Below are positions 1,776 through 57,151 of a stretch of DNA of 64,000 bases, piece by piece. Origin of the DNA: Planctomycetota bacterium. GTDB taxonomy: Bacteria; Planctomycetota; PLA2; JAEUHO01. The notes below the pieces were generated by a model. The model searched no databases. It was given only the letters and a program-made list of their open reading frames with translations, and was not told the DNA's origin. Position 1 is the first letter of the stretch. Each line of letters starts with the position of its first letter. Location: assembly GCA_030066775.1 (NCBI GenBank), contig JASJAY010000001.1:4612-68611 (forward strand). Direction: 5' to 3'. The position numbers and the translations under genes were made by a program.

Positions 1776-3401
<1,626 letters not shown>

Positions 3402-3460
3402 GCCCTACGTCGAAGGCTCGGGTGGAGGGAGGCCGCACCTGCGGCTACCTTGAGGCCTCC

Positions 3461-4879
3461 ATGCGACGCGCGCTTCCCTTGCTTGTGCTCCTGCTCGTTT
3501 TCGCGGGCGGGCTGCCGGCCGCCGCCGAGGACTGGAACGACGCCAAGAGCGCGTTCAAGAAGGCGCTGCGCTCCGAGGACTGGAAGACGCGCGCCACGGC
3601 CTTCGGCGAGCTGGCCTACTACGACGGTACGAAAGCCGTCCAGGAGATCCTCAAGGTCCTCGCCAAGGAGAAGAACGAGGCCGTCGCGCTCGCGGCCGTG
3701 AAGGCCCTGGCGGCCTTCGTCACGGACGAGGCGAAGGCCGAGCTGGAGAAGCAGCTCAAGACGTCCAAGGGCCAGAAGCGGCTCTACATCATGCTCGTCC
3801 TGGAGCAGCAGCCGGGCAACCACGGCAGCTCCATCATGATGGAGTTCCTGGCGGGCGAGAAGGACCTGGCGCTCAAGTGTCAGGCGGCGCTCGTGCTGGC
3901 CAACCGACAGGTCAAGGCCGCGCTCCCGTACTTCTACAACATGTGCTTCCACAAGGACTGGCACGTGCGGTCGGCGGGGGCACGCGCGCTCGAGATCATG
4001 GCCGGCAAGAAGCCGGAGAAGCCGACGGACCCGAAGGAGAAGCCGAAGCCCTGGGTGCCCGAGTGGTATCCGAAGGACAAGGTCGTGGGCGTGCTCATCG
4101 ACGCCTTCGAGCAGGCCGATGGCGCCGAGCGTCGCGCCATGCTCTCCGCCCTCGAGCGCGTGACGAAGCAGCAGTTCGGCTGGGACGTGCCGGCTTGGCG
4201 TGCGCTCCAGAAGGGCACGCCCGTCGAGAAGATCAAGCGCAAGCCCAAGCACCCGCCGTACTTCTTCGGCGTTCCCGTCTGGGGCAAGCGCGTCGCGATC
4301 GTCACGACGATCAACCACCGCATCAGCGAGCCGCACAACTACACCGACAAGAAGCGCCTCCAGGAGCTCTGCGAGGTGCCCGGCGCGCGCAGCGTGGCCT
4401 GGCCGAAGATCAAGACCAACCGCCACTTCATGATGAAGCACATGATCCGCACGGTGCTCGACATGGAGAGCGGTACGAAGTTCAACGTCTACCTGGCCGG
4501 CCAGAAGGTCGAGTCGCTCTTCCCCAAGCTCGTCTCCGCCAACCGCAGCACGAAGAACACCGTCAGCGAGGAGCTCGAGGAGGTGAAGTCCGACGCGGGC
4601 AACGACGCCTACACGTCCCTGATGGAGGCGCTCGACCTCGGCGGGTCCAAGGACAGCGCCGCCTGGAGCAAGGGCCCGGACGAGATCCTCTACGTCTCCT
4701 GCGCGATCCCCTGGCTCGCCGAGGTGACGGATCAGCAGGTGATCGGCGCTTCGGTGGGGCTGAAGGCCCGCCGCCGGATGGTGCCGATCGTGGCCGTGGG
4801 CGTGGGGGAGCACCCCTACGAGCTGATGGAGCTCATGGCCGAGCTCACCGGCGGCCTCTACCGTTCGCTCGAGCGCTGA
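3461..4879 (+). CDS. secreted HEAT-repeat protein with C-terminal vWA-like domain (degenerate MIDAS)
   Basis: ATG 3461 within track ORF 1952..4879. Signal peptide MRRALPLLVLLLVFAGGLPAAAED. HEAT-like helices (DWKTRATAFGEL, DWHVRSAGARALE). The C-terminal half has a vWA-like layout (VAIVTT..., GNDAYTSLMEAL, VPIVAVGVGEH...LTGGLY) but lacks the DxSxS motif. Confidence 0.7.
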   Translation: MRRALPLLVLLLVFAGGLPAAAEDWNDAKSAFKKALRSEDWKTRATAFGELAYYDGTKAVQEILKVLAKEKNEAVALAAVKALAAFVTDEAKAELEKQLKTSKGQKRLYIMLVLEQQPGNHGSSIMMEFLAGEKDLALKCQAALVLANRQVKAALPYFYNMCFHKDWHVRSAGARALEIMAGKKPEKPTDPKEKPKPWVPEWYPKDKVVGVLIDAFEQADGAERRAMLSALERVTKQQFGWDVPAWRALQKGTPVEKIKRKPKHPPYFFGVPVWGKRVAIVTTINHRISEPHNYTDKKRLQELCEVPGARSVAWPKIKTNRHFMMKHMIRTVLDMESGTKFNVYLAGQKVESLFPKLVSANRSTKNTVSEELEEVKSDAGNDAYTSLMEALDLGGSKDSAAWSKGPDEILYVSCAIPWLAEVTDQQVIGASVGLKARRRMVPIVAVGVGEHPYELMELMAELTGGLYRSLER

Positions 4880-4932
4880 CGCGGACCCTCGCCCTGGTAG
4901 AATTGTGGGGTCTACGGTCTGGGAGAAGCCCC

Positions 4933-5940
4933 ATGCTGCGTACGCGCACCCTGCTCGCCCTCTTCGCCCTTCTCATCGCCCTGGCGCCCGCCGCCGTTGC
5001 CGATGACGAGGTCCAGCTCGCCACCGACGAGGAGGCCAAGGAGGCCCTCGCGGTCTTCAAGAAGGAGTACAAGGCCAAGGGCCTCAAGGGCGACGACAAG
5101 CTGATGCAGCGCGACTTCGCCATGAAGAACCTGGTGAAGACGCAGCACAAGATGATCGCCGACGAGCTCGGCAAGCTCGTCAAGAAGAACGACGAGGACA
5201 TCCGCACCCTCGCCGTGATCTACCTCGGCGAGATGCGCGGCGTGCCCGGCACGGCCGGCAAGCACATCGTTGCCGCGATGAAGAAGCACAAGAAGGACAC
5301 GATCTTCCTGATGTCGGCGCTCGACGCGGTCGGCTACCTGCGCTACCTCGGCGCCGGCGACGAGATCGTGGACCTGATGAACCACAAGGACTTCGCGCTG
5401 AAGAAGTACGCCATCCGCTCGGCCGGCTGGATCCAGGACATCCGCTTGATGCCTGCGCTCTTGAAGCTGCTCGGCATCGAGGTCAAGGCGGACAAGGGTG
5501 ACTCCGGCAAGGAAAGCGACAAGGGCGACGGCGGCAAGGAGGCGGAAGTCGAAGAGGGCTACTCCTGGGACGGCGTCGAGGTCAACTACGACACCGGCAC
5601 CCCCGGCGACCACGATCAGAAGATGGCCGAGAAGATCGGCAAGGAGCAGCTCGCCAAGAACAAGGCCGCGGCCGAGGCCAAGGCCGGCAAGAGCGGCGCG
5701 ACGGGCATGGCCGGTGCCTCGACCGGCGGCGCCGGCGGCCCCCGGACGGGCGGCGGCGCGACGAGCCGCACGCTCGAGGAGCTGGCTCCCAACATCCTCA
5801 AGGCGCTCAAGAACATGACCGGCGAGGAGTTCGAGAAGGGCCGCGAGATCAAGCTCTGGCTGCGCGTGAACGGCAAGAAGATCCGCGAGCTCGAGAAGCG
5901 CTACGACCGTCGCGAGAAGGCGCAGCGCAAGGGCGCGTAG
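4933..5940 (+). CDS. secreted HEAT/ARM-like repeat protein with Lys/Gly/Asp-rich linker
   Basis: ATG 4933 within track ORF 3877..5940. Signal peptide MLRTRTLLALFALLIALAPAAVAD. Helical repeats are followed by a low-complexity KADKGDSGKESDKGDGGKE region. Confidence 0.65.
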   Translation: MLRTRTLLALFALLIALAPAAVADDEVQLATDEEAKEALAVFKKEYKAKGLKGDDKLMQRDFAMKNLVKTQHKMIADELGKLVKKNDEDIRTLAVIYLGEMRGVPGTAGKHIVAAMKKHKKDTIFLMSALDAVGYLRYLGAGDEIVDLMNHKDFALKKYAIRSAGWIQDIRLMPALLKLLGIEVKADKGDSGKESDKGDGGKEAEVEEGYSWDGVEVNYDTGTPGDHDQKMAEKIGKEQLAKNKAAAEAKAGKSGATGMAGASTGGAGGPRTGGGATSRTLEELAPNILKALKNMTGEEFEKGREIKLWLRVNGKKIRELEKRYDRREKAQRKGA

Positions 5941-5972
5941 CCTTCACACCGCACACCAGGTCCGAATTGAAG

Positions 5973-6005
5973 CAGGCCGGCATGTACGTGCCGGCCTGTT
6001 TCGTT
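5973..6005. terminator. bidirectional intrinsic-terminator-like hairpin between convergent genes
   Basis: CAGGCCGGCA (5973-5982) pairs with TGCCGGCCTG (5989-5998), followed by TTTCGTT. It sits between the stops at 5940 (+) and 6026 (-). Confidence 0.6.
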
Positions 6006-6025: not shown

Positions 6026-7030
6026 CTACTTGTCGCGATAGGGCTTGTGGCAGCGGACGCACAGGTCCTTCACGATCGCCAGCTTCTTGTCCGAGAGGTC
6101 GCGCGATGCCTCGTCACCGTCGATGTACGCCTTGACCGAGGTCTTGAGCTCCTTGACGCCCGTGACCGAATCCGCCATCCACTTGCGGTAGTCCGCGGGA
6201 CGCTTCGACGTGTCGGCCAACGCGTGCATCTGCTCGAACTGCTCGAAGAGCTTCGTCGTCTCGTTGACGGGATCGATGTCGGGGTGCGCCGCGTCGCTCT
6301 TCCAGCCGTTCTTCTTGAGCCACTTCACGTTGTCCCAGGTGCGCGTCATGTCGACCATGCCGGCGCGGAGCCCCGTGATCTCGTGCTTCGAGGGGAAGTC
6401 CCACTCGTACGCCTCGGTCTCCTTCGCCGTGGGCAGCGCGTCATTGGCGATGGACTTGTAGAGGCCGGTGTACTTGGCGGCCGTGCCGCACCACTGGCGC
6501 ATCTCGGCCAGCGCCAGCTCGCGGCTGGCGCCGTCGAGCAGGACGCGGCCCACGGCTGCGGCCGCGGGACCGCGGTGCTTGCCGTGGAAGCAGTGCACGT
6601 AGAAGGGACCCGGCAGCTCGCGGAACGTCTTCGCGATCTGCAGCATCTGCGCCTTCGACAGTCCGCCGTAGCGGATCGGCACGTGGACGTAGCGCATCCC
6701 GAGCTTCTCGGCGAGCTCGACGTTGGGCGCCTTGCCGTCCACGGAGAGGATCGTCTTCGCGCCCATCTTGGCGACGGCTTCGAGCGCCTCGTCCGTCAGC
6801 GGCTCACCGCCAGAGAGGATGTTCTCGGAGAGCTCGAAGACGTTGTGCAGGTCCTCGCGCTCGAAGGGCTCGACCTCGGGCAGCTCCGTGCGGCCGGCCC
6901 AGTCGTAAGCGGGCGTGCTGGACGCCAGCGGGGGCGGGACGGCGCCTGCCTCGGCCACCTGCTCGCTTCCGCACCCGGTCAGCGGGAGGGCCAGGAGGGC
7001 GGCGAGAGCGAGGGGAAGCGTGCGAATCAT
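6026..7030 (-). CDS. lipoprotein fusing a Cys-based (PTP/DSP-like) phosphatase domain to a cytochrome c'-like CXXCH domain
   Basis: Track ORF 6026..7153 trimmed to ATG 7030 with GGAG upstream. Lipobox LPLTGC. P-loop HCFHGKHRG fits HCX5R. The helical C-terminal roughly 130 aa end in CVRCHKPYRDK, a CXXCH placed as in class II cytochromes c. Confidence 0.7.
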   Translation of the reverse strand: MIRTLPLALAALLALPLTGCGSEQVAEAGAVPPPLASSTPAYDWAGRTELPEVEPFEREDLHNVFELSENILSGGEPLTDEALEAVAKMGAKTILSVDGKAPNVELAEKLGMRYVHVPIRYGGLSKAQMLQIAKTFRELPGPFYVHCFHGKHRGPAAAAVGRVLLDGASRELALAEMRQWCGTAAKYTGLYKSIANDALPTAKETEAYEWDFPSKHEITGLRAGMVDMTRTWDNVKWLKKNGWKSDAAHPDIDPVNETTKLFEQFEQMHALADTSKRPADYRKWMADSVTGVKELKTSVKAYIDGDEASRDLSDKKLAIVKDLCVRCHKPYRDK

Positions 7031-7188
7031 GGGGGGAGACTCCTGCGTGCGTGCGTATGGGTGTCGTGAAACGCACACGCCGTACCACGGCCGCGGGCCC
7101 CAATTTCTGGGGCTCGGGGCAGTCGAGTGTAACGCTCGCGCTACACCGGTCACCGTTCCGGAAGGACCCCGGTGTTACCGTCCCGCGC

Positions 7189-8235
7189 GTGCGCCTCGAG
7201 GACCTCGAATACGACCTGCCGCCGGCCTTGATCGCCCAGGAGCCCCCGGCTCGCCGGGGCGACTCGCGCCTGCTCGTCCTGCCCCGCTCCGAGGGCCCGG
7301 TCCGGCACCAGGGCATCGCCGATCTAGGCACCCTGCTGAGCCCCGGCGACCTGTTGGTCGTGAACGACACCCGCGTGCTGGCAGCGCGCCTGGACGCGCG
7401 GCGCGAGACCGGCGGCCGGGTCGAGGTGCTGTTCCTCGAGCCGGTCCCGGGCCTCGAGGGCGTCTGGAGCGCGCTGCTCAAGGCCGGTGGGCGACCCCAG
7501 CCGGGGGAGCGCCTCGAGGTGGGGCTGGACGTGGGAATCCGCCTCGTGGCGCGCGGAGCGGGCGCGACCTGGCATGTGCGCCCCGAGGGCGCCACGGCCG
7601 CCGAGCTGATGGCCACGTACGGGCGCATGCCGCTACCGCCCTACATCGAGCGGAAGGCGGGCGACGAGCGAGCGACCCTGGACGAGCGCCGCTACCAGAC
7701 CGTCTACGCCGCCACGGAGGGCGCCGTTGCGGCCCCGACGGCGGGCCTGCATCTCACGGATGCGATGCTGGCGTCCCTGCGCGAGCTGGGCGTGGAGATC
7801 GCCACGGTCACGCTCCACGTCGGCCTCGGTACGTTCGAGCCCGTCCGCGTCGACGACCTCGACGAGCACGACATGCACGTCGAGCGCTTCGAGCTGCCCG
7901 CGGCCACGGTCGAGGCGGTGCGGCGGGCTCGGGCGCGCGGGGGCCGCGTCGTTGCCGTGGGGACCACCAGCGTGCGCGCGCTCGAGGCCGCGGCCGCGGA
8001 CAGCTCCGATGACCTGCCGCGGGCCGGTGCCTCGACCACCGGGCTGCTCATCCAGCCGGGCTATCGATTCCGCGTCGTGAACAGTCTGCTCACGAACTTC
8101 CACCTGCCGCGCTCCACCCTGCTCGCCCTCGTCTTCGCCTTCGCAACCCGAGCACGCGTGCTCGACGCCTATGCGGAGGCGATTCGTAGCGGCTATCGCT
8201 TCTACAGCTACGGCGACGCCATGCTGCTCCTCTGA
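7189..8235 (+). CDS. queA: S-adenosylmethionine:tRNA ribosyltransferase-isomerase
   Basis: Track ORF 7051..8235 trimmed to GTG 7189 (VRLEDLEYDLPPALIAQEP). Contains MPLPPYIERK and LLTNFHLPRSTLL, both typical of QueA. Confidence 0.9.
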   Translation: MRLEDLEYDLPPALIAQEPPARRGDSRLLVLPRSEGPVRHQGIADLGTLLSPGDLLVVNDTRVLAARLDARRETGGRVEVLFLEPVPGLEGVWSALLKAGGRPQPGERLEVGLDVGIRLVARGAGATWHVRPEGATAAELMATYGRMPLPPYIERKAGDERATLDERRYQTVYAATEGAVAAPTAGLHLTDAMLASLRELGVEIATVTLHVGLGTFEPVRVDDLDEHDMHVERFELPAATVEAVRRARARGGRVVAVGTTSVRALEAAAADSSDDLPRAGASTTGLLIQPGYRFRVVNSLLTNFHLPRSTLLALVFAFATRARVLDAYAEAIRSGYRFYSYGDAMLLL

Positions 8236-8369
8236 CCCTCTCGCTGCGCAGCCGTGCGCAGGCACCCCTCGGAATCGGCCGGGTCGTCCACAATTCGATG
8301 GTTCCGATCCTCTGTATCAATCCAGTCGATAGACTCCCGCGCGAGGGGACGGCAAGGGCAGGGCAGCGG

Positions 8370-9851
8370 ATGACGGACGTCTCCCTCGAACCGGGGCAGG
8401 CCATTGACGCGGTATGGTCGGAGCGCGCGCGCGGGCTCTCGCCCGCCCAGCAGGACGCGCTCCTCGAGCGGGCGGACGCGATCCGCAACGAGCCCGAGGG
8501 TGCCGCGTCGGCGTACGGGTGCTACCTGGCGCTGCAAGAGCGCCTCCACCTCTCTCGGCCGGCGGATGTAGAGCGCACGATCTGGCTCTTCGAGCACATG
8601 GAGGTCGCCGATCCCAGCCTCATGCTCCTCGCTCGCGCTGCCGCCGAGACGACGGCGTGCACGGAGCTCTGGTTCCAGGGGCGGCTGCGGGTCGCGCAGA
8701 TCGAGCGCGAGCAGGGCCACATCCGCGCGGCCGAGAAGCTCCTGTTCGTGCTCCTGGGGGACGTCGCGGGCCAAGACGAGCGCTGGGAGGCGCTCGTGGC
8801 GGCGAACCTGTCGCTCTGCTTGCGACACCTCAACCGCGAGGTCGAGGCGCTCGTCCTCTGCCGGCGAGCCCTGGCCGGATTCGAGCGGCTCGGCGACCGG
8901 CGTCGGGCGATCCGCGTGCGTCAGGTGGTCCAGAACATCCTCATCTCGTTCCATGACTGGCGGCGCTATGAGCGTGAGCGCGAACGGCTCGAGCGCGACA
9001 TCCCCGAGCTCGCCGAAGCGGAACGTCGTCAGGTCGACATGTCGGACCTGATGATGCGCGCCCAGGCCGCCTTCGAGCGCAACGCGTTCGACACGGCGCT
9101 CGTTCACCTCGACGAGGTCGAGGCGCGGTTCTCGCATCGTCGGACTTGGGCCCTCGTGACGCGCGCGTTCGTTCTCGCCGTGATGGGGCGTGGCAGCGAG
9201 GCCCTGGCCGTGCTCGGCGCCGACCCCGCCGAGCACGAGTACGGTCCGCAGTACTCGATTCAGAACGACACCACGCGAGTCCTCTGCGCCCTCCAGAGCC
9301 AGGCGCCCGACGAGGTCGAGAAGACGGCGACCGCGTTCCTGGATCGCCTCGAGGCGGGGACCGAACCGCCGGGCAACCGGATCACCATGCTCCTGCACGT
9401 GGCCCGTGAGCTGGGGCGCCTGGGGGAGCACGGCGCGCTCGCCAAGCGCGCCTACGACCTCGCGGCAGCCGCGATCGTCGAGCGCATCCTCGAGGTCGAT
9501 CGTTTCGCCCGCGAACGGCCTACGCTCATCGAGCTCTCGGCCGAGGAGCGCAGCACGCTCGGCGAGCTGCGTATCCGCCTGCTCGCCCGGCACGAGGAGC
9601 TCATGCGTGCCGTTGGTCGGCTGCTCTTGGAGGCGCGTGCCCGCGGGGAGCCGATGCCCTCGGAGTGGTACGGCAGCGAAGGTCTGCTCTGCGTCTGTGC
9701 CTGGTGCGGGCGCATGAAGCGCGGGGACGACGGCTGGGTGCCGGTGGGGGCGTTCATCCCCGACGACAGCACGCTGCAGCTCACGCACGACATCTGTCCC
9801 GACTGCTATCACGAGCGAGCCCAGAACGGCAACGCCACCAAGTCGTCCTGA
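8370..9851 (+). CDS. hypothetical helical-repeat (TPR-like) protein with C-terminal CxCxxC...CxxC motif
   Basis: Track ORF 8298..9851. ATG 8370 is preferred, but 8298 remains possible. Mostly alpha-helical repeats. The C-terminus reads LLCVCAWCGRMKRGDDGWVPVGAFIPDDSTLQLTHDICPDCY. Confidence 0.6.
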   Translation: MTDVSLEPGQAIDAVWSERARGLSPAQQDALLERADAIRNEPEGAASAYGCYLALQERLHLSRPADVERTIWLFEHMEVADPSLMLLARAAAETTACTELWFQGRLRVAQIEREQGHIRAAEKLLFVLLGDVAGQDERWEALVAANLSLCLRHLNREVEALVLCRRALAGFERLGDRRRAIRVRQVVQNILISFHDWRRYERERERLERDIPELAEAERRQVDMSDLMMRAQAAFERNAFDTALVHLDEVEARFSHRRTWALVTRAFVLAVMGRGSEALAVLGADPAEHEYGPQYSIQNDTTRVLCALQSQAPDEVEKTATAFLDRLEAGTEPPGNRITMLLHVARELGRLGEHGALAKRAYDLAAAAIVERILEVDRFARERPTLIELSAEERSTLGELRIRLLARHEELMRAVGRLLLEARARGEPMPSEWYGSEGLLCVCAWCGRMKRGDDGWVPVGAFIPDDSTLQLTHDICPDCYHERAQNGNATKSS

Positions 9852-9880
9852 GCCGGGCAGCGCGGCGCTACCATGCCGCC

Positions 9881-11008
9881 GTGAACGACGCCCTAGACGT
9901 CCTGAAGCGCGCCGCCGCCAAGCTCGGCTTCGAGGTCGTGGGCGTGACGTCGGCCAGGCCCGTCGAGGCGGCGCTCGCAGCACTCGAGACCTGGAGCGAG
10001 GCCGGCAACGCTGCCGCGCTTGGCTACATGACGCGCAACCCCCCGGAGCGCGCCGATCCTCGCACGTTGCTCGACGGCGTGCGCACGGTGGTCACGGTGG
10101 CCGTCAACTACCACGTCGACGTGCCCGCCTTCGAGCACGAGGCACGCTTCGGTCGCGTGGCGCGATACGCCTGGGGCCTCGACTACCACGACGTCGTGAT
10201 TCCCAGGCTGCGTCAGCTCGCTGACGAGCTCGCCGCGACCTTCGGCGGCAAGGCGCGCGCCGCCTGCGACCACTCCCCGATCCTCGAGCGCGCATTCGCC
10301 GAGCGCGCGGGCCTCGGCTTCTTCGGCAAGAACACCTGCCTGCTCCTCCCGCGCAAGGGGTCGTGGTACTTCCTCGGCGAGGTGCTCCTCGAGGCCGAGC
10401 TGCCCACGACGGACCGCGAGAGCACCGACCACTGCGGCACGTGCACCGACTGCATGCCGGCCTGTCCGACGGACGCGTTCCCCGCGCCCTACGTGCTGGA
10501 TGCACGCCGCTGCATCTCGTACCTGACCATCGAGCACAAGGGCTCCATCCCGCACGACCTGCGTCCGTTGATGGGGGCCTGGGTCTTCGGCTGCGACGAC
10601 TGCCAGGACGTCTGCCCGTTCAACCGCTTCGCCAGCGAAGCCACCTGGCCCGAACTCCATCCCGATCGCGGTGTCGGTCAACGGCTCGACCTCGCCGATG
10701 TGCTCGCCATCGAGACCGACGACGCTTTCCGCGCGCGCTTCCGGAACACCCCGCTCTTGCGTCCCAAGCGTCGGGGCTTGCTCCGGAACGCCGCGATCGC
10801 AGCACGCAACGTCGAAGCCACAGCTGCCATCCCGGCCTTGCGCGCCCGCCTCAGTGATCCAGAGCCGCTGCTTCGCGAGGCGGCCCTATGGGCGCTCGAG
10901 GGACTGACGCCGGACGAAGTCCGAAATCATGCGGATATGCTTCGATCGGACGAAGACGGGGCTGTTGTGGCCGAGGCCGCCCGGATCCTGGGTGGGGGAG
11001 CGGCCTGA
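9881..11008 (+). CDS. queG: epoxyqueuosine reductase
   Basis: GTG 9881 within track ORF 9665..11008. Two 4Fe-4S motifs (CGTCTDCMPACP, CDDCQDVCPFN). C-terminal HEAT-like repeats are typical of QueG. Confidence 0.9.
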   Translation: MNDALDVLKRAAAKLGFEVVGVTSARPVEAALAALETWSEAGNAAALGYMTRNPPERADPRTLLDGVRTVVTVAVNYHVDVPAFEHEARFGRVARYAWGLDYHDVVIPRLRQLADELAATFGGKARAACDHSPILERAFAERAGLGFFGKNTCLLLPRKGSWYFLGEVLLEAELPTTDRESTDHCGTCTDCMPACPTDAFPAPYVLDARRCISYLTIEHKGSIPHDLRPLMGAWVFGCDDCQDVCPFNRFASEATWPELHPDRGVGQRLDLADVLAIETDDAFRARFRNTPLLRPKRRGLLRNAAIAARNVEATAAIPALRARLSDPEPLLREAALWALEGLTPDEVRNHADMLRSDEDGAVVAEAARILGGGAA

Positions 11009-11077
11009 GCCGCCCTCACGGGAATCCGTCCGCCTCACGCCCCTCCTGAGTAGACTTTGCGTCCCCATCTCTAGCGT

Positions 11078-11155
11078 CGGGGCGTGGCGCAGATTTGGTA
11101 GCGCGCCTGAATGGGGTTCAGGAGGTCGCTGGTTCGAGTCCAGTCGCCCCGACCA
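11078..11155 (+). tRNA. tRNA-Pro (anticodon GGG), CCA encoded
   Basis: Hand-folded cloverleaf. Acceptor CGGGGCG/CGCCCCG; D arm GCGC-AGATTTGGTA-GCGC. Anticodon arm CCTGA-ATGGGGT-TCAGG with GGG at 11113-11115. T arm GCTGG-TTCGAGT-CCAGT, discriminator A, then CCA. Confidence 0.9.
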
Positions 11156-11171
11156 TTTCCCTTCTCCCTCC
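11144..11171 (+). repeat. direct repeat copy A (tRNA-Pro 3' end plus 16 nt)
   Basis: TCGCCCCGACCATTTCCCTTCTCCCTCC matches 14619-14646 at 27 of 28 positions, with the first 22 identical. Confidence 0.85.
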
Positions 11172-11422
11172 ACAACGGCACCCGATGAGTGACCTACGTG
11201 GATCGCTGCGACCGGGTTGGGTGGATAGCCTGCGACAGTGAGCTGCTTGCGCGCCGCCCGTCCCTCTTCCAAGTCAGTGGCGCCCAGGACGTCCTTGATG
11301 CACGACAGGGGGCCCTGTCCTTCAGGCGGAAGAGCAAGACACATCCGGAGCGGATGCCCGCTGAGAGTCCCACGACGGTCCGCAGGGGGATCCAACGGGT
11401 CGACGTAGTACGATCGCCTTCG

Positions 11423-14400
11423 ATGAACCTGGCTCGATCGCCGCGCGACCTCGCCACGCCTCGCAATGGCTTGCAGCGGTGGCACGGAGCCGTGGGCGCC
11501 GTTCTGTTCCTGGCGTACGTGCTGGTCCCTTCCGCAGCGCCGGCGAAACCTGACGAGGTCTTCGACGCGAACGGGTTGGTGGCGCGGTACACGTTCGAGG
11601 AAGGAACGGGATCCACGCTCCAGGATCACAGCGGAAAGGCGCATCACGGGCGCATCCGAGGCGCGACCTGGGTCGACACGCCCATGGGCGGCGCACTGCA
11701 GTTCAACGGTCGGGATGCCGTGACCGACCTGGGCCGGCCCCGCGGTCTCAACCTGGATGGTGACCTGACCATCGAGGTGTGGCTGCGGGCGTCCCTCGCC
11801 ACGATGAAACGCGGCACACAGCCCTTGATCTTCGGCATGAACGCCGGCCCAACGAAGACCCGCAACTACAACCTGCGGATCGATCACAAGCAACGCCTCC
11901 GGTTCGAGTGGGGCGACGGAGAGGCCGGGAGCTTCGTATCGACCTCCGCTGGGTTTCTGAACGGAGCCTGGCGCTACGTCGCCGTGGTCGTCGACTCGGG
12001 TAGCGGCGTGCACATGTTCGTCGACGGCAGCCTCGTGCACACGCAACGGGCCTCGATGCCGATCGTGGCGCGTCCGCCGCAGAACGTGACGATCGGGGGC
12101 TGGGGGCCGGGCTACTTCCAGGGGGAGATCGCCGAGCTCAGGCTCTTCAACCGCGCCCTGTCGACGGGCGAGATCCGGAAGCACGCGGGCCTCGAACCCG
12201 ACTCGGTCAAGGCGGCCCTGCGGCTGCATCCCTCCCACGACGTCCGCGGCAAGCGGGTGCACTGCGACGTGTTCGTAGAGTCAGGCGCTGCGCGGAATCC
12301 GTGGCTCGAGATCCGGCTCACAGACGCGCGCTCCGGTCGAGCGCTGGCGTCGACGAAGCGGAAGCTGGGAGCGCGGGGGAAGTCGGTCTCCCACTCGTGG
12401 CAGCGCGTGTCCATCCCGGCCGACATCCCGGCAGAGGGGATCGTGCGGGCGGAAGCGAGGTTGCTCGACGGACGGAGGAAGGAACTGGCGCGCGCCGGGG
12501 TCATCCGGGAGCTCGCGCCGGGCTGGCTGACGGCCGGGGTCGGCGTGTCGAACGAAGTCCCGCCTCCCTGGACCCCTTGTGTGACTCGCAAACAGAAGGG
12601 GCAGGTCACGGTCGACGTGTGGGGCCGGAAGCACCGCTTCGGTCGCGGCCCCCTGCTGGAATCCCTGACGAGCGGTGGTGCAGAGCTGCTGGCTGGGCCC
12701 ATTCGTCTGCCGGCGGCAGCGGGCGGTCGCGCCTTGCGGTGGAAGTGGAGCCCCCCGAAGCTCGTGGACTCCGAGGCGCGTCGGGTGGTCATCCGGCAGA
12801 GCGCTGTGGCCGGCGGCCTCCGTCTCACCTTGGACACGCAGCTCGAGTACGACGGCCTGTTGTGGACCGAAGCGCGACTCAGTACGCGCCGGGCCATCGA
12901 GATCGATCGGCTGGCCCTTGAGATCCCCCTGCCGGCCGATCAGGCAACGCTGCTCAACGTCTGGCGGGATCGAACCGCGTACGCGGGCCTCCTGAAGACG
13001 GATTTCGCCCACGCGTTCGCGCCGCTCCTGTGGATCGGGAACGAGCAGCGAGGACTGAGCTTCTGCGCCGAGTCGGATCAACACTGGGCGCCGGCCGACC
13101 CGGATCGTGCCCTCGAGGTCCAGCGCGTCGGCGACGAGACCCGACTGCGACTCAACTTCGTCACGCGGCCCAGCAGGCTGGCACCGGGTCGGCCCTGGAC
13201 GTATGCCTTCGGACTGCAGGGAACGCCCGTGCGTCCGATCGTCAAGAGCTACTGGGACCTTCGCGTCCACCGGATGCCCGTGTACAGCCGCGAGCTGGAG
13301 TGGCCCAAGCGGACGATCGGCGACACGCCGGCGCTCCAGCACTACGCCGAGCGTGGCGCCCGCGCCCTGATCGCCTGGGAATGGTGCGACACGTTCTCGT
13401 ACATGCTGCCGGTCGGGCGCGAGGAGTCCTTCCGCGCGCTTGTAGCCGCAATGGATGCACGCAGCCTGAAGGTGCTGCCGTACTCCATCGGGTTTCTCCT
13501 GAGTGATCGCGCACCAGAGTTCGACGGCTGGTCCGATGAGTTCCTACGTAAACCGCGGAGAGAGTTTCCCAGTCTCGGACCCGTCCTTCAGGACATCCCG
13601 CAGTCGATGTACTTCACGTGCCCCAACGGCCTCTGGAAGGACTTCGCCGTTGCGATGGCGGCGCGCTGCATGCAGGAGTATGGAGCCGGCGGCGTCTACC
13701 TGGACACGACCACGAGGCCGTTCGCCTGCCAGAACGGGTGTCACGGCTGTGGGTACACTGCGCCGGACGGCCGGCGCGTATCGACCTACCCGGTGCGAGG
13801 GGCGCGTGAGCTCATGAGGCGACTGCGCACGGCGGTCAAGGCATGCGATGCCGACGGGATTGTCGACGTGCATCCGTTCGACTGCTTGAACGTGCCCGCC
13901 CTGGCATACGCCGACGGCATGTGGATCGGCGAGCATCTGAGGCGCGTACCTCACAAGATCGACGCGCTGCCCCTCGACCGCTTCCGAACCGAGATCCTTG
14001 GACGCAACCTCGGGATCCCCTCCGACCTGCTCTACTACCGGCTGGCCGACTACGAGGCCTGCCTCGCCCTCGCGCTGCTGCACGACGTGCCGGTTCGCAG
14101 CGAGAAGGACGCCGATATCGACATTCTGGCGCAGGTCTACCGCATTCGGGACGCGTTCGGCTGTCGGGAGTCAGAGTTCATCGGGTACTGGGAGGTCGGC
14201 GACCGCATCCGCGTGTCCGGTCGGGACTGCCACGCGAGCCTGTGGAAGCATCCGAAACAGGGCGTGCTGGTCGTGATCTCGAACCTCTCGAGAGAAGAAG
14301 CGAACCTCGAGATCACGTTCGACCTTGCCGCCCTGGGCATCGGCTCAGGCGTCTCGGCCTACGACGAACGTCACGGCAAGCCGCTACCTATCAAGGGCGG

Positions 14401-14461
14401 CACCATCCGGTTGGCCCTACCCTCGCAGCAGTGGACGCTCGTGCGGATTCCACGCCGTTGA
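11423..14461 (+). CDS. LamG (concanavalin-A-like lectin) domain protein with large C-terminal glycoside-hydrolase-like domain
   Basis: Track ORF 11189..14461 trimmed to ATG 11423. N-terminal hydrophobic anchor AVGAVLFLAYVLVPSAAPA. LamG_3-like signature (LNGAWRYVAVVVDSGSGVHMFVDGSLV...GEIAELRLFNRALSTGEI). From memory, the C-terminal roughly 600 aa resemble DUF4091/GH123-type putative glycosidases. Confidence 0.65.
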   Translation: MNLARSPRDLATPRNGLQRWHGAVGAVLFLAYVLVPSAAPAKPDEVFDANGLVARYTFEEGTGSTLQDHSGKAHHGRIRGATWVDTPMGGALQFNGRDAVTDLGRPRGLNLDGDLTIEVWLRASLATMKRGTQPLIFGMNAGPTKTRNYNLRIDHKQRLRFEWGDGEAGSFVSTSAGFLNGAWRYVAVVVDSGSGVHMFVDGSLVHTQRASMPIVARPPQNVTIGGWGPGYFQGEIAELRLFNRALSTGEIRKHAGLEPDSVKAALRLHPSHDVRGKRVHCDVFVESGAARNPWLEIRLTDARSGRALASTKRKLGARGKSVSHSWQRVSIPADIPAEGIVRAEARLLDGRRKELARAGVIRELAPGWLTAGVGVSNEVPPPWTPCVTRKQKGQVTVDVWGRKHRFGRGPLLESLTSGGAELLAGPIRLPAAAGGRALRWKWSPPKLVDSEARRVVIRQSAVAGGLRLTLDTQLEYDGLLWTEARLSTRRAIEIDRLALEIPLPADQATLLNVWRDRTAYAGLLKTDFAHAFAPLLWIGNEQRGLSFCAESDQHWAPADPDRALEVQRVGDETRLRLNFVTRPSRLAPGRPWTYAFGLQGTPVRPIVKSYWDLRVHRMPVYSRELEWPKRTIGDTPALQHYAERGARALIAWEWCDTFSYMLPVGREESFRALVAAMDARSLKVLPYSIGFLLSDRAPEFDGWSDEFLRKPRREFPSLGPVLQDIPQSMYFTCPNGLWKDFAVAMAARCMQEYGAGGVYLDTTTRPFACQNGCHGCGYTAPDGRRVSTYPVRGARELMRRLRTAVKACDADGIVDVHPFDCLNVPALAYADGMWIGEHLRRVPHKIDALPLDRFRTEILGRNLGIPSDLLYYRLADYEACLALALLHDVPVRSEKDADIDILAQVYRIRDAFGCRESEFIGYWEVGDRIRVSGRDCHASLWKHPKQGVLVVISNLSREEANLEITFDLAALGIGSGVSAYDERHGKPLPIKGGTIRLALPSQQWTLVRIPRR

Positions 14462-14618
14462 GCAGACGACTGCACTTCCGGGGGGCCTTGCCGCTGTACG
14501 TGGCCGCACGGCCTCCACGGCGGGATCCCGGAGGCGTGCGCGGAGCTGGAGGCTGCAGACGCCTACATCTCCAGCCTCACCGCCCACGAGACGGGTCGCG
14601 GATATGTACCGACTCGGC

Positions 14619-14646
14619 TCGCCCCGACCATTTCCCTTCTTCCTCC
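14619..14646 (+). repeat. direct repeat copy B (orphan tRNA-Pro 3' end)
   Basis: TCGCCCCGACCATTTCCCTTCTTCCTCC. Weaker similarity continues downstream (CCCGATGAGYGA) after an insertion of about 25 nt relative to copy A. Confidence 0.85.
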
Positions 14647-14702
14647 GTCACGGAAGGCTCCCTGAGCTTGTCGAAGGGCCCGATGAGCGATCGCCAGGGA
14701 GC

Positions 14703-15221
14703 GTGCCGTTGTCGACGCTGGAGCTAGGAGTCCGCGCCGCGGTCGTCGAGGATGCGGATGGCATCGCCCGCGTCGCCGCATCCGACGGGACCCAAACCAG
14801 GACCGAGATCCTTCCTCTGATCCGGACCGAGCTCGAGGAGATCGCAAGCGGCAAGCTGCATCGCTACACGTGCGTAGCCGAGGTCGATGGGACGATCGTG
14901 GGCTACGGTCGCTGCGCGGGCGACGACACGTTCACCAAGGGGTTCCCCCAGTTGCCCGATGGTTGGTACCTGTCCGGCGTCCTGGTGCTGCCGTCCAGTC
15001 GCCGTCGAGGCGTCGGCAGAGCGCTAACGCAGCACCGCATGGAGTGGCTACGCGAGCGCACCGAGATCGTCTACTTCCTCACGTCGGAGACCAACGTGCC
15101 CTCTGTGGCGCTCCACTCGGAGTTCGGCTTCGTGGAGATCCAGCGCGGCATTCCGCCCAAGACCGGGGACACACGCGGGATTCCGAGATGCCTCTTCCGA
15201 GCTCGGTTCAGCGACTCCTAG
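14703..15221 (+). CDS. GNAT-family N-acetyltransferase
   Basis: GTG 14703 within track ORF 14325..15221; the start is uncertain. Acetyl-CoA-binding-like motif VLPSSRRRGVGRALT. The stop overlaps the convergent lipoprotein gene by 4 nt. Confidence 0.7.
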   Translation: MPLSTLELGVRAAVVEDADGIARVAASDGTQTRTEILPLIRTELEEIASGKLHRYTCVAEVDGTIVGYGRCAGDDTFTKGFPQLPDGWYLSGVLVLPSSRRRGVGRALTQHRMEWLRERTEIVYFLTSETNVPSVALHSEFGFVEIQRGIPPKTGDTRGIPRCLFRARFSDS

Positions 15222-51811: not shown

Positions 51812-52501
51812 TCAGAGCTTCTGATCGGCGTCGCCGACCCGGCGCTCCGTGCCCCGCAGCACGCGCTGGATGTTGCTGCGATGACTCCACACGACGAAGC
51901 CCGCCATGACAAGCAAGAAGGCGAAGACGACGAAGCGTGCGTGGAAGGTGTCGGCGCCGTTGTCGAGCCAGTACGACAGCGGCATCATCACCATCGCCGC
52001 GATCGAGCCCATGCTCATGTAGCGGGTGATGCCCAGGATCATGCCCCACGCCCCGAGGCCGGCGAGGGACGAGAGCGGCGCGAGGGCCGTGACGACCCCG
52101 AACATGGTCGCGACGCCCTTGCCGCCGCGGAAGCGCAGATACGGCGTGAACACGTGGCCGAAGATCGCGGCCGTGCCGGTGATGACCTGCAGCGCGAGGC
52201 CTGTGCTCTCCGAGTCGAGCACGCGGCCGACGGCCGCGGCGGCCTCCACCGAGAAGAGCGCGACGAAGAGTCCCTTGCCGAAGTCGAGCGCGAACACGAC
52301 GACGAACATCGCGATCGAGCGCCAGCCGGACCACTGCCGGGCGCAGTTCGTGGCGCCCACGCCGCCGCTCCCGACCTTGCGCAGATCCACGCCCTTGAAC
52401 GTGCGCGCCATGATCCAGCCGAACGGAATGCCCCCGATGAGGTACGCAGCAACGGCGAGGAGGATCTCGGCGGTCGGCGTTCCCATGCTGATGAAGGCCA
52501 T
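51812..52501 (-). CDS. plsY: glycerol-3-phosphate acyltransferase PlsY
   Basis: Track ORF 51812..52651 trimmed to ATG 52501. Motifs GSGGVGATN and FRGGKGVAT. Five to six TM helices. Confidence 0.9.
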   Translation of the reverse strand: MAFISMGTPTAEILLAVAAYLIGGIPFGWIMARTFKGVDLRKVGSGGVGATNCARQWSGWRSIAMFVVVFALDFGKGLFVALFSVEAAAAVGRVLDSESTGLALQVITGTAAIFGHVFTPYLRFRGGKGVATMFGVVTALAPLSSLAGLGAWGMILGITRYMSMGSIAAMVMMPLSYWLDNGADTFHARFVVFAFLLVMAGFVVWSHRSNIQRVLRGTERRVGDADQKL

Positions 52502-52674
52502 GCGGGCTCCTGTGTCCGTCGGGGGCGGACCGTCGTCAAGATACCCCTGACGTGACCGTTCGGCAGCCTCCAGGCCCAGTGCGTGAACACGACGGCCATT
52601 CCGGCCGGCCGATGGTGCCTGACACGGCGCGACGCTAGGCTCACACGCCACCTCAGGGAAGGAGACCCCGGCCC

Positions 52675-54642
52675 ATGCCGCCCGCGCATCCGATCCGGCT
52701 CGGCGTCGACACGGGCGGCACCTTCACCGACGTCGTCTGGACGGGGCCGTCGGGGCGCGGGGTGAAGAAGCTCGCGTCCACGCCCGACGATCCGGCCCGG
52801 GCCGTGCTCGACGGCGTGGCCGCGGTCACGGGCGCGCTCCCTGCCGGTACGCCGTACACGGTGCACCACGGAACGACCGTGGGCACGAACGCCGTACTGA
52901 CGCGCGGCGGGGCGCGGGTCGTGCTGGTGACCACCCGCGGCTTCGAGGCGCTGCTCGCCGTCGGGCGTGGTCAGCGCGAGGGACTGCACCGCATGGCCCC
53001 GCGTCGCGTCGCGCCGTTGGTCGAGGTCGCGAATTGCGTGGGCGCAGAGGAGCGCATGGGCGCCGACGCGCGTCCGGTCCAGTCGCTGACGTCGGCTGCC
53101 CTCGATCGGCTCGCCGCCGCGGTTGAACGCCGCCGGCCGGAGGCGGTGGCGGTGTGCCTGCTGCATGCGCCGCGCAACGCCGCACACGAGAGGCGGATCG
53201 TGAAGCGATTGCGCGACGTGTGCCCCTACGTGTACGCATCGGCCGCGAGCTCGCCCGACCCGCGCGAGGTGGAGCGTGCGACGACCACGGTGCTCGATGC
53301 CTACGTCGCGCCGCTGGTCGCGCGCTACGTCGCGTCGCTGGCCGACGCGCTGCCGCCGGACGCGCTGACGATCCTGCGTTCCGACGGCGGTCGCATGGCC
53401 GTCACCGAGGTGCGCGCGTCGCCCGTGCGGACGCTGCTCTCCGGACCGGCGGCCGGCGTTGCGGCAGCCCGCGTCCTCGCCGCGCGACACGGCTTGCCGC
53501 GCGTGCTCACGTTCGACGTCGGCGGGACCAGCACGGACGTCGCCTGGGTCGAGGGCGGCGCGGCGCCGCTCGGCTCCGAGCTGCACGTCGGCCCCTTCGC
53601 CGCGGGCGTGCCGTCCGTGCCCATCGAGACCGTCGGGGCGGGCGGCGGGAGCGTGGTGCGCGTCGACAGCGGTGGTGCGCTTCGCGTCGGCCCCGAGAGC
53701 GCCGGGGCGGCGCCGGGTCCCGCCTGCTACGGACGCGGGGGGCCCTTCGCGTTGACCGATGCGTGGCTCCTGCTCGGACGCATCCCCGACGCGCTGCTGG
53801 GCGGCGACTTCGCGCTCGACCGCGCCGCCGCACGCCGTGCCGCGGCACGCGTCGCGAAGGCCGCGGGCCTCAGCGTGCCGGCCCTCTGCCGCGGGGCCGT
53901 CGCCGTGGCGGCGACCACCACCGCACGCGCGCTGCGCCTCGCGTCCGCCGCCCGCGGCCACGATCCGCGCGATGCGGCGCTGCTCGCCTTTGGCGGTGCG
54001 GGTCCCGTGCTGGCGTGCGACACGGCCGATCAGCTCGGCATGCGCGACGTGCTGGTGCCCACCGATCCGGGCACGTTCGCCGCATCCGGTGCGCTGGCCG
54101 CCCCGCTGCGCGCGGACGCGTCTGCGCTGGCGCCCGCGAAGGGTGGCGAGACGGCGCTCGACCGCGTCGGCAAGCGGCTACGGCGCGAGGTGGAGACGCG
54201 GCTCTTGGCCGAGGGGGCGCGCGGGCCCTTGCGCTTCGTCGAGGAGGTCGACGCGCGCTACGCGGGGCAGGCCTTCGAGGTGACGGTCGCACGCGACGGG
54301 TGGCGCGAGCGGTTCCACGACCGCCACGAGGCGCGATACGGCTTCGCCGACGCGCGCCGCCCGGTCGAGTGCGTGCGCCTGCGTGTCCGCGCGGAAGGCG
54401 ACGACCATCCGGGCGCGCGGCCCTCGGACGCGCACGTGGCCGCGCCGCGCCACGTGCGGACGCGGCGCCTTGCGCGGGATGCGAAGGGGGTCGGCACCTG
54501 TGCCCGCAGCACCTTGTCGCCGGGCGATCGCGTGCGCGGGCCCGCGCGCATCGACGAGGTGTCCGGGACGAGCTTCGTGCCTGACGGATGGAGCGCCGTG
54601 TGCCTCGGCGACGCCGCGCTGCGGATCGGGAGGACGCGATGA
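52675..54642 (+). CDS. hyuA: hydantoinase/oxoprolinase family protein, A subunit
   Basis: 655-aa ORF with ATG after GGAAGGAG. N-terminus RLGVDTGGTFTDVV is typical of hydantoinase A. Confidence 0.85.
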   Translation: MPPAHPIRLGVDTGGTFTDVVWTGPSGRGVKKLASTPDDPARAVLDGVAAVTGALPAGTPYTVHHGTTVGTNAVLTRGGARVVLVTTRGFEALLAVGRGQREGLHRMAPRRVAPLVEVANCVGAEERMGADARPVQSLTSAALDRLAAAVERRRPEAVAVCLLHAPRNAAHERRIVKRLRDVCPYVYASAASSPDPREVERATTTVLDAYVAPLVARYVASLADALPPDALTILRSDGGRMAVTEVRASPVRTLLSGPAAGVAAARVLAARHGLPRVLTFDVGGTSTDVAWVEGGAAPLGSELHVGPFAAGVPSVPIETVGAGGGSVVRVDSGGALRVGPESAGAAPGPACYGRGGPFALTDAWLLLGRIPDALLGGDFALDRAAARRAAARVAKAAGLSVPALCRGAVAVAATTTARALRLASAARGHDPRDAALLAFGGAGPVLACDTADQLGMRDVLVPTDPGTFAASGALAAPLRADASALAPAKGGETALDRVGKRLRREVETRLLAEGARGPLRFVEEVDARYAGQAFEVTVARDGWRERFHDRHEARYGFADARRPVECVRLRVRAEGDDHPGARPSDAHVAAPRHVRTRRLARDAKGVGTCARSTLSPGDRVRGPARIDEVSGTSFVPDGWSAVCLGDAALRIGRTR

Positions 54643-56210
54643 GTCGTCGCGACGACCCGGTGGCGCTGGCGCTCACGCGCGACTTGCTCGAGAGCGTGGC
54701 CGAGGAGATGGCGGCCGTGTGCATCCGCACCGCCGTGTCCCCGAACGTGAAGGACCGCCGCGACCTGAGCGCGGCCGTCTTCGATGCCAAGGGCGTGATG
54801 GTCGCCCATGCCGCGCACATCCCCGTGCACCTCGGCGCGATGCCCCTGTCCGTGCGCGCCGTGCTCGACACGTGCCCGCTCGAGCCCGGGGACGTCGCGC
54901 TCGTGAACGACCCGTACGCCGGCGGCACGCACCTGCCCGACATCACGGCCGTGCGCGCCGTCTTCGATCCCGCGACCCAACGCCGTGCGTTCCTCGTCGC
55001 GGTGCGCGCGCACCATGCCGACGTCGGCGGCGCGGTTCCCGGCTCGATGGCGCCGGCCGACGACGTGTACGCCGAGGGCCTGCGCATCCCGCCGGTCCGC
55101 TGGGTCGTGAACGAGACGCCGGATCCCGGCGTCACCTCCCTGCTGCTCTCGAACATGCGCGACGCGGACGAGCGGCGCGGGGACTTGGCCGCCCAGGCCG
55201 GCGCGCTGCGGCTCGGCGAACGCCGCTTGCGCGAGCTCGCCGCGGGCGCCGGCGGCCTCACGCGATTGGCGCGACGCGGCGCTTCGCTCGTGCGCTACGC
55301 CGGGCGGTTAGCCGCCGCGGCGCTCGAGCGATTGGCCGACGGCAGCGCGAAGGCGCGGCTCGACCTGGAGGTCGACGGCGTCGACGGCAAGCCCGCGCGC
55401 GTCGCCGTGCGACTCACCAAGCAAGGCACGCGTCTGACCGTCGACTTCAGCGGGACGACAGGGCCGGTCGGCATGGGCTTGAACGCGCCACGCGCCGTCA
55501 CCCAGAGCGCCGTCTACTACTTCGTGCGCTGCCTCTGTCCGGACGGGACACCGACGAACGACGGGCTGATGGAGCATGTCGACGTCGTGGTGCCCGACGG
55601 CTGCCTGCTGGCCGCACGCCCGCCCGCGCCGGTCGCGGGCGGCAACGTCGAGACGAGTCAGCGCGTCGTCGACGCCCTCTGGCTCGCAGCGGCGCGGCTG
55701 TGGCCGGGCCGGGTGCCCGCGCCCGGCTGCGGCACGATGTCGAACTGGACCTTCGGCCGTGCGCCCGACGGGCCGCCGATGCCCTCGTACTACGAGACGA
55801 TCCCCGGTGGGGCCGGCGGGGGTCCCGACGGGGCCGGCGCCGACGCGATCCAGCAGCACATGACGAACACGCGCGGCACGCCGGTCGAGGTGCTCGAGGC
55901 GCGCTGGCCGGTGCGCGTCGAGCGGCTGGCCCTCCGGCCGCGGAGCGGCGGAGCCGGCAAGCAGGCGGGCGGGCGCGGCGTGATCCGCGAGGTCCGCTTC
56001 CTCGAACCGGCCGTCGTCTCGCTGATGATGACGCGCCACGCCACGCCCCCGCCGGGCGTCGCCGGCGGCAAGCCCGGACGCGCGGGCCGCGTGACGCTCG
56101 TGCGCGGCGGTCGGGCCCGCCGCCTCGACCCCCGAGCGCGCGTGGACATCCGCCCCGGCGACGTGCTCCGGATCGAGACCCCGGGTGGCGGTGGTTGGGG
56201 GCGCCCTTGA
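54639..56210 (+). CDS. hyuB: hydantoinase/oxoprolinase family protein, B subunit
   Basis: Track ORF 54588..56210 trimmed to ATG 54639, which overlaps the hyuA stop as ATGA. SPNVKDRRDLSAAVFD and NDPYAGGTHLPD are typical of hydantoinase B. Confidence 0.85.
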   Translation: MSRRDDPVALALTRDLLESVAEEMAAVCIRTAVSPNVKDRRDLSAAVFDAKGVMVAHAAHIPVHLGAMPLSVRAVLDTCPLEPGDVALVNDPYAGGTHLPDITAVRAVFDPATQRRAFLVAVRAHHADVGGAVPGSMAPADDVYAEGLRIPPVRWVVNETPDPGVTSLLLSNMRDADERRGDLAAQAGALRLGERRLRELAAGAGGLTRLARRGASLVRYAGRLAAAALERLADGSAKARLDLEVDGVDGKPARVAVRLTKQGTRLTVDFSGTTGPVGMGLNAPRAVTQSAVYYFVRCLCPDGTPTNDGLMEHVDVVVPDGCLLAARPPAPVAGGNVETSQRVVDALWLAAARLWPGRVPAPGCGTMSNWTFGRAPDGPPMPSYYETIPGGAGGGPDGAGADAIQQHMTNTRGTPVEVLEARWPVRVERLALRPRSGGAGKQAGGRGVIREVRFLEPAVVSLMMTRHATPPPGVAGGKPGRAGRVTLVRGGRARRLDPRARVDIRPGDVLRIETPGGGGWGRP

Positions 56211-56285
56211 GTTGCGGGTACCCTGCGGGATCCCCGTGGAAGCAGGCGAGACGTGTCTTCTGGGGGGATCGGAGGGCCCGTTCGC

Positions 56286-57056: not shown

Positions 57057-57151
57057 TCCGGGATTCGGTGCCCACCTCGCGCATTTGCAGTTTCCGAGGT
57101 CCCGAGGCCGGGGCACCCTGTGTGACGAGCCCGGAGGAGGGGCTCGCCCGC

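Follow-up and report, generated by a model that had tools for sequence, protein, structure and literature searches.

Cis-mobilizable elements (CIMEs) keep their attachment (att) sites and lack genes for integration and transfer (PMC5704250). The islands at the ssrA gene of Dehalococcoides stand in tandem, each ending in a 20-bp repeat copied from the gene's 3' end, with a conserved motif just upstream of the repeat that does not align with the gene (PMC3146451). Fifteen (15) of these islands have no integration module, and CIMEs were suggested by the authors of that work (PMC3146451). When an element integrates into a tRNA gene (tDNA), it brings a replacement 3' end and the original is displaced to the far side (PMC4383910). 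Here we describe a locus of this kind in a 64-kb window, the whole stretch of DNA analyzed, from a Planctomycetota bacterium (GCA_030066775.1, contig JASJAY010000001.1; coordinates are those of the window, + strand, unless another contig is named). The segment 11156-14630 lies directly behind a tRNA-Pro(GGG) gene and holds one cargo gene. We propose that it is probably a small, integrase-less, CIME-like islet that entered at the tRNA 3' end by site-specific integration and is still being exchanged between lineages.

The islet and its ends comprise five features:

11078-11155, + strand: intact tRNA-Pro(GGG) with encoded CCA (ARAGORN, Rfam); putative regenerated target gene on the attL side
11144-11171, + strand: proximal copy of a 28-nt repeat (last 12 nt of the tRNA and 16 nt of flank)
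11423-14461, + strand: cargo gene, 1012-aa protein, the only convincing gene between the repeats (NCBI MDJ0972836, 'DUF6067 family protein')
14593-14630, + strand: 38-nt right-end motif, element arm and displaced tRNA 3' fragment, putative attR; found once in the window, against a chance expectation of none
14619-14646, + strand: distal copy of the 28-nt repeat

The tRNA-Pro(GGG) gene is the sole tRNA of the window (ARAGORN; Rfam RF00005, 57.7 bits), and an Rfam scan of the window returned no other RNA family. We observed that 11144-11171 and 14619-14646 are identical at 27 of 28 positions in the same orientation and contain an exact 22-mer (TCGCCCCGACCATTTCCCTTCT). The first part of the distal copy, 14619-14630, is the final 12 nt of tRNA-Pro(GGG). 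The 22-mer has exactly two occurrences in the window and appeared in none of 100 dinucleotide-preserving shuffles, even with up to 3 mismatches, where the chance expectation is none. These counts bear out the first-pass annotation of this DNA, which had reported 27 of 28 matches with 22 consecutive identities. It had also described a decayed T-arm before the distal copy. A T-arm-like sequence is indeed present, as the ungapped repeat reaches 44 nt at 82% identity (11135-11178 vs 14610-14653) and takes in CGACTCGGC vs CGAGTCCAG; it is part of the conserved 38-nt motif. The weaker similarity said to resume further on (CCCGATGAGYGA) exists after a 23-nt offset, but its score was equalled by 44 of 500 shuffles and is not significant alone. 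A longer duplication reaching into the downstream GNAT acetyltransferase gene was rejected, because nothing significant aligns past the 28-mer. Further copies of the repeat core or of the 38-nt motif were absent from the rest of the window; one 12-mer with 1 mismatch at 33538, on the opposite strand, is at chance level.

An inverted-repeat search gave no pair that joins the cassette's own two ends. The sole inverted pair near them (11076-11089 and 14615-14628, 14 nt, 86%) matches the tRNA 5' acceptor strand to the displaced 3' fragment, and is found because the strands of the acceptor stem are complementary. The locus does not resemble an insertion sequence or transposon: there was no transposase match, no terminal inverted repeats came up, and the repeat is 28 nt long and overlaps the tRNA end. 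It does show an intact target tRNA at one end and, at the other, a displaced, co-oriented fragment of that tDNA, the two marks by which Islander recognizes island ends. This geometry points to integration into the tRNA gene.

The same cassette was found elsewhere. The closest homologue of the cargo protein (P0001, 93% amino acid identity) is encoded on L081 and L082, contigs of two Planctomycetota metagenome-assembled genome (MAG) assemblies, L082 being independent of L081. The tRNA-Pro gene is 100% identical over 84 nt in the window, L081 and L082, and lies just upstream of the cargo gene in each. By blastn, window 11357-14630 matched L081 4129-7389 at 94% nucleotide identity. The flanks differ: the islet lies between queG and the GNAT gene in the window, whereas in L081 it has a sigma-54 activator gene and an AHSA1 gene on its left, and a mini-cassette followed by a methyltransferase region on its right. 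Window orthologues of the L081 sigma-54 activator and its neighbor are 36 kb away and are only 65% and 46% identical in amino acids (71-73% in nucleotides). The right edge of the shared segment is sharp. Homology between the window and L081 ends with the final A of the displaced fragment's CCA (window 14630, L081 7389), with 84-92% identity up to the CCA and unrelated sequence beyond. The same cargo and right end thus occur at the same tRNA in a distant genome, at 94% nucleotide identity against a background of ~72%, and this supports integration as the favored reading. The scar of site-specific integration suspected in the first-pass annotation accordingly gains support from the shared tRNA site in L081, the CCA boundary and the conserved arm.

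The right end is the 38-nt motif, with the consensus GGGTCGC-N6-GTAYCGACTCGG-NN-CGCCCCRACCA. The copies read GGGTCGCGGATATGTACCGACTCGGCTCGCCCCGACCA in the window, GGGTCGCGTACATGTATCGACTCGGGCCGCCCCGACCA at the first site in L081 and GGGTCGCGCACGTGTATCGACTCGGGTCGCCCCAACCA at the second; a looser form that allows variants is GGGTCGC-N5-8-GTA-N0-1-CGACTCGG-NN-CGCCCCRACCA. L081 and L082 each have two copies of the motif, and in L081 a second displaced fragment follows 441 nt past the first. The two L081 copies agree at 34 of 38 positions and the sequences upstream of them differ. Between the copies lies a 441-nt mini-cassette (L081 7390-7830, L082 6994-7434), whose only open reading frame (ORF; 89 aa, L081 7488-7757) has no Pfam record or NCBIfam match and reads as a putative small membrane protein. 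A variant of the motif one base shorter was found on the minus strand of the metagenome contig L091 (Ga0316197_10117605, 1075-1210). It is followed by a hairpin flank of the L081 type and preceded by an unrelated 139-aa ORF fragment without a Pfam match, which points to a third cargo at such a site. Because the non-tRNA half of the motif is kept across cargos and the upstream sequence is not, this half would be the element arm of an att site and not the product of neutral decay. The two motif-ended units in tandem carry the signature of accretion at one attB.

We found nothing in the folding of the motif that sets it apart. As single-stranded DNA, four copies gave z-scores of -1.29 to +0.62 with no common structure, no better than shuffles. 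An attC-like or tRNA-like fold of the right end was rejected, since shuffles fold equally well and Rfam sees only the real tRNA.

Sequence divergence places the exchange of the cargo after the split of the genomes. Between the window and L081, synonymous divergence (dS) is 0.114 and nonsynonymous divergence (dN) 0.033 for the cargo gene, compared to 0.706 and 0.295 for the sigma-54 activator. These values, far below those of the activator, date the exchange of the cargo to well after that split. L113 (GCA_013332895.1, contig JAAUXW010131898.1), a contig without junctions, carries a third copy of the cargo gene with 91.6% nucleotide identity. This copy is broken into three ORFs of 254, 494 and 201 aa and is either a pseudogene or the result of assembly frameshifts. 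The window, L081 and L113 form a three-way mosaic, in which L113 is nearest to the window over some 300-nt segments and to L081 over others. The window and L081 share a run of perfect identity of 596 nt (13562-14157). These patterns suggest that exchange of the cargo between lineages is ongoing and recombinational.

Taken as integration, the locus would be assembled as follows. The intact tRNA-Pro would be the regenerated target (attL), and the conserved 38-nt element arm, finishing in the displaced tRNA 3' fragment, would be attR. The crossover would fall in or just 5' of CGCCCCGACCA, the boundary of acceptor stem and T-stem. The recombinase would be specific for tRNA-Pro and either encoded elsewhere or since lost. 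Later spread between lineages may have relied on that recombinase acting in trans, by accretion with a functional element, by homologous recombination between resident copies, or by both. The empty-site junction would then read tRNA ...CCAGTCGCCCCGACCATTTCCCTTCTTCCTCCGTCACGG and the circle junction ...GTACCGACTCGGCTCGCCCCGACCATTTCCCTTCTCCCTCCACAACGG.

The closest described anatomy is that of the Dehalococcoides ssrA islands, which likewise show tandem 3'-end repeats, a motif upstream of them and near-identical copies across divergent hosts; the position of their motif would put the crossover near the T-arm, as here. They differ in that a serine-recombinase module often lies beside attL, the target is the tmRNA gene and the cargo is reductive dehalogenase. 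CIMEs, for example the ICESt1-related ones of Streptococcus thermophilus, likewise have attL and attR at the 3' end of the target gene and no integration or transfer genes, if the sites here are indeed functional att sites. They too stand in tandem with other elements at a site, as the two motif-ended cassettes do in L081 and L082. The islet differs from them in having no known parent among integrative and conjugative elements (ICEs) or integrative and mobilizable elements (IMEs), and in its host phylum, Planctomycetota, and its target, tRNA-Pro(GGG). It is also a single gene in 3.5 kb (441 nt for the L081 neighbor), and no functional partner element was found for its putative mobilization in cis by accretion.

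Islander-type tDNA islands and prophages (PMC4383910) likewise have a regenerated tDNA at one end and a displaced, directly oriented 3' fragment at the other. They require a tyrosine integrase gene inside the island, and we found none in the cargo gene, its antisense and alternative frames or the tested ORFs of the window. The usual identity block of such islands covers the T-arm or the anticodon arm, whereas in the islet no more than the final 11-12 nt of the tRNA are repeated. The usual extent is seen in two viral contigs. Scans of viral contigs with the 38-nt motif, the 22-mer and the cargo protein gave no match; a scan with the true tRNA 3' 25-mer gave five contigs from other organisms, two of them with att-like half tRNAs (IMG/VR; L109 8100-8170 and L111 7150-7224). 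In these two only the 3' half of tRNA-Pro(GGG) is present, running from the anticodon loop to CCA, and its last 25 nt are those of the window tRNA. Their ORF lists, taken without a Pfam scan, show no integrase-sized ORF (about 350-450 aa) beside the site.

Integron cassettes and Xer-dependent modules (integrative mobile elements exploiting Xer, IMEX, and pdif modules) are small recombinase-free units with a short conserved site and a fixed locus, and their recombinase is encoded elsewhere. The islet is likewise a small recombinase-free unit ending in a short conserved site at a fixed locus. It differs from them in having no intI, attI, attC-like fold or dif-like site, and its anchor is a tRNA gene. 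The neighbors of the tRNA are queG in the window and AHSA1 in L081, with no intI or attI beside the array.

Several observations weigh against integration as we propose it. We found no candidate recombinase, and the visible genome is 64 kb only. A Pfam scan of about 45 ORFs, the plausible genes of all 64 kb, returned no recombinase, excisionase or transposase family, and a Pfam recombinase match was also absent from the 17 kb of L081; both results fit an integrase-less islet. The first-pass annotation was thus right that the repeats enclose one ORF and no recombinase (Pfam scans; MDJ0972836). No foreign origin is signaled by composition or codon usage either. The fraction of G or C at third codon positions (GC3) is 0.843 in the cargo gene, 0.859 in queG and 0.838 in the GNAT gene, against a mean of 0.884 (standard deviation 0.048) for 29 window genes. 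Cargo codon usage departs from the rest of the window by a distance of 0.097, less than the average of 0.106, and the GC content of the interval (0.66-0.71) is inside the range of the window. The earlier remark that the cargo gene uses visibly more A/T-ending codons than queG therefore comes down to a negligible difference, and the GC and codon profile that the same annotation had called for puts the cargo within the range of the window. This null result is uninformative, not negative: composition cannot discriminate here, because the L081 genome is similar in composition.

No empty site was obtained for the lineage of the window, which lacks close relatives among the collections searched, so we infer insertion and have not seen it. 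Searching by queG gave 80 loci from 185,579 species genomes; the best relative was 67% identical in amino acids (Planctomycetota MAGs), and 0 of the 19 closest had a tRNA-Pro nearby. Searching by the GNAT gene gave a nearest relative of 49% identity, besides a 99% match (P0009/MDJ0972837) taken to be the source contig itself, since the NCBI MAG contig that bears it also encodes the exact LamG protein of the window (MDJ0972836). An exact-sequence look-up of this LamG protein returned no record. Searching by the AHSA1 neighbor gave one extra left junction, L117, in a 79%-identical relative, with tRNA-Pro followed by different content on a contig that stops 280 nt past the tRNA. Along the same route L116, L118 and L125 end too early or are without the tRNA, and a 51%-identical homologue (P0038) was discarded for its unrelated context and lack of synteny to L081. 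A metagenome scan with the 21-nt pattern CGACTCGGNNCGCCCCGACCA gave 19 loci, of which only L091 is similar to the window beyond the pattern. The other loci were set aside: three that were inspected fall within long ORFs, and in many the frame reads DSVRPDH, which we take to be a motif of sulfatases.

The left arm also fits less well. The tRNA-proximal 200-400 nt are not common to the window and L081, and one shared attP should give one shared arm. Identity to L081 is ~95% from 11596 on, and is 76% at 11496-11595, 71% at 11396-11495, 54% at 11305-11395 and ~35% at 11160-11304; a local alignment of 11156-11356 with the L081 left arm was not significant. The left arm of the window opens with 16 nt copied from the window's own right flank. 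That of L081 opens with a hairpin that also follows tRNA-Pro in L117, where a different ORF, beta-propeller-like and on the opposite strand, lies downstream. Because the window left arm begins with those 16 nt of right flank, the window repeat has 28 nt and that of L081 only 11-12 nt. In addition, all copies come from metagenome assemblies, and part of the mosaicism could be a consensus artefact. The most economical account is that both lineages have carried a cassette of this family for a long time, each with arms adapted to its own lineage, and that the interior and right arm were recently exchanged, by homologous recombination or by cassette replacement.

These same observations bring up an older history, in which the LamG cassette integrated long ago, once per lineage or in an ancestor, and is now a fixed remnant with dead att sites whose 94-100% identity comes from homologous overwriting. 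The gradual fall of identity to L081 toward the left (95%, 76%, 71%, then unalignable), with the leftmost values near the ~72% background, is what such overwriting would leave, as is a dS of 0.36 in the first 100 codons of the cargo gene compared to 0.01-0.16 elsewhere. Both the three-way mosaic and the 596-nt stretch of perfect identity bear the mark of homologous exchange, and lineage-specific left arms fit as well. The right edge does not, as it falls exactly at the CCA at 84-92% identity, with no homologous DNA beyond it to anchor a crossover. Both outer flanks also differ, so that an ancestral cassette would need rearrangements exactly at its two ends, and an end motif that is kept across cargos and in tandem argues for a site that works or recently worked. 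We regard a dead remnant as rather unlikely on this balance. A more trivial origin, by local duplication or slippage unrelated to integration, or as a chimeric assembly with its join at the tRNA or inside the shared gene, is scarcely credible. The window contig does come from a single metagenome assembly, and a 596-nt stretch identical to the copy of another organism could mislead an assembler. The bracketing by an intact tRNA and a displaced fragment is, however, the same in L081 and is reproduced in the independent L082. Both window junctions carry the 16-nt flank that is absent from L081, which argues against a chimera by placing the two sides of the gene in one genome. The local duplication entertained in the first-pass annotation would moreover leave unexplained why the non-tRNA arm of the motif is conserved in other cassettes.

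A bolder alternative is an integron-like platform, anchored at tRNA-Pro(GGG), of single-gene cassettes (~0.4-3.5 kb) that each end in the 38-nt pseudo-tRNA site, with a chromosomal recombinase that captures them in tandem in trans and swaps them between genera. We give it little credence at present. The units do each hold a single ORF and end in the motif (3.5 kb in the window, 441 nt in L081, another cargo in L091), their ORFs are co-directional with the tRNA, and the cassettes are all free of a recombinase. However, only three or four such units have been seen, no recombinase gene lies beside the tRNA in the window or L081, and the motif folds no better than shuffles, unlike attC. The gene downstream of the tRNA in L117 is on the opposite strand, and ordinary accretion of decayed islands fits the data equally well. 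Integration of a small islet, with later exchange between lineages, is therefore the reading that we retain.

The remaining features of the locus are the following:

9884-11008, + strand: queG (epoxyqueuosine reductase; Pfam QueG_DUF1730, Fer4_16), core-genome left flank outside the islet
11172-11422, + strand: tRNA-proximal left arm, non-coding and lineage-specific, with no promoter-like or terminator-like site
14462-14592, + strand: non-coding 3' cassette tail, common to L081 (identity 84-92%) and inside the blastn block 11357-14630
14703-15221, + strand: GNAT acetyltransferase gene (Pfam Acetyltransf_1, 6.2e-16), right flank, presumed native

The cargo protein has a Laminin_G_3 domain (Pfam, 5.8e-21) and a C-terminal GH123_N-like region (1.9e-23). 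Against PF19543 (GH123_N) it scored 82.8 bits (cutoff 22), with the best stretch covering only profile positions 751-930 of 969. It had no match in NCBIfam, and its sole sequence match in the PDB was a LamG-like S-layer domain (E = 0.0014). The N-terminus is hydrophobic and the protein is probably secreted. The ratio of dN to dS against L081 is 0.29, which indicates a gene that is likely functional and under purifying selection. Homologues of 56% identity lie in ordinary carbohydrate-enzyme (glycoside-hydrolase) clusters with no tRNA; this fits the capture of a single gene, and the islet gene looks like one lifted from a glycoside-hydrolase cluster. In the interval between the repeats we found no promoter-like or terminator-like sites, and its antisense and alternative-frame ORFs had no Pfam match.

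Upstream of the tRNA, the genes queA (about 7200-8235) and queG lie directly before it (window 6379-11008), with a 517-aa ORF without a Pfam match between them (8298-9851). Further to the left, window 3400-6000 has a strong positive AT skew (+0.2 to +0.3) and a lowered GC content (0.63-0.68). It is spanned by an 828-codon frame, counted from stop to stop, whose sole match, to HEAT_2, is borderline. On the other side, GC3 is lower in genes over the ~20 kb downstream of tRNA-Pro (11000-32600; 0.78-0.89, mostly <=0.85) than at 33000-64000 (0.87-0.94). The genes of this low-GC3 stretch encode the LamG protein, two GNATs, a DUF5122 propeller, a 1211-aa WD40 protein, APH, DUF3124 and RibD_C. The stretch could represent an older flexible region beside the tRNA; additional att copies were not found in it. 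At 52000-58500 the GC content (0.73-0.76) is above that of the rest of the window, and the genes there encode hydantoinase/oxoprolinase A and B and a TPR protein. Downstream of the cassettes in L081 (11897-12746), a weak AbiEii-like toxin match (E = 5e-4) and an adjacent 87-aa ORF lie among several ORFs of no family, which suggests a toxin-antitoxin pair.

The mobile elements of Planctomycetota are, to our knowledge, barely described. The islet is of a known type, integrase-less and tRNA-linked, in a site of tandem accretion. The locus gives a sequence-defined attachment site, composed of tRNA-Pro(GGG) and a 38-nt element arm, and direct evidence that a single gene of carbohydrate-active type moves between distant Planctomycetota without a recombinase of its own. 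The motif can serve as a search key for more cassettes, for the missing recombinase and possibly for longer arrays. If there are no arrays and no dedicated recombinase, the locus is one more case of decayed islands accreting at a tRNA gene. If both exist, it would amount to a new platform for gene capture, functionally a tRNA-based counterpart of the integron.

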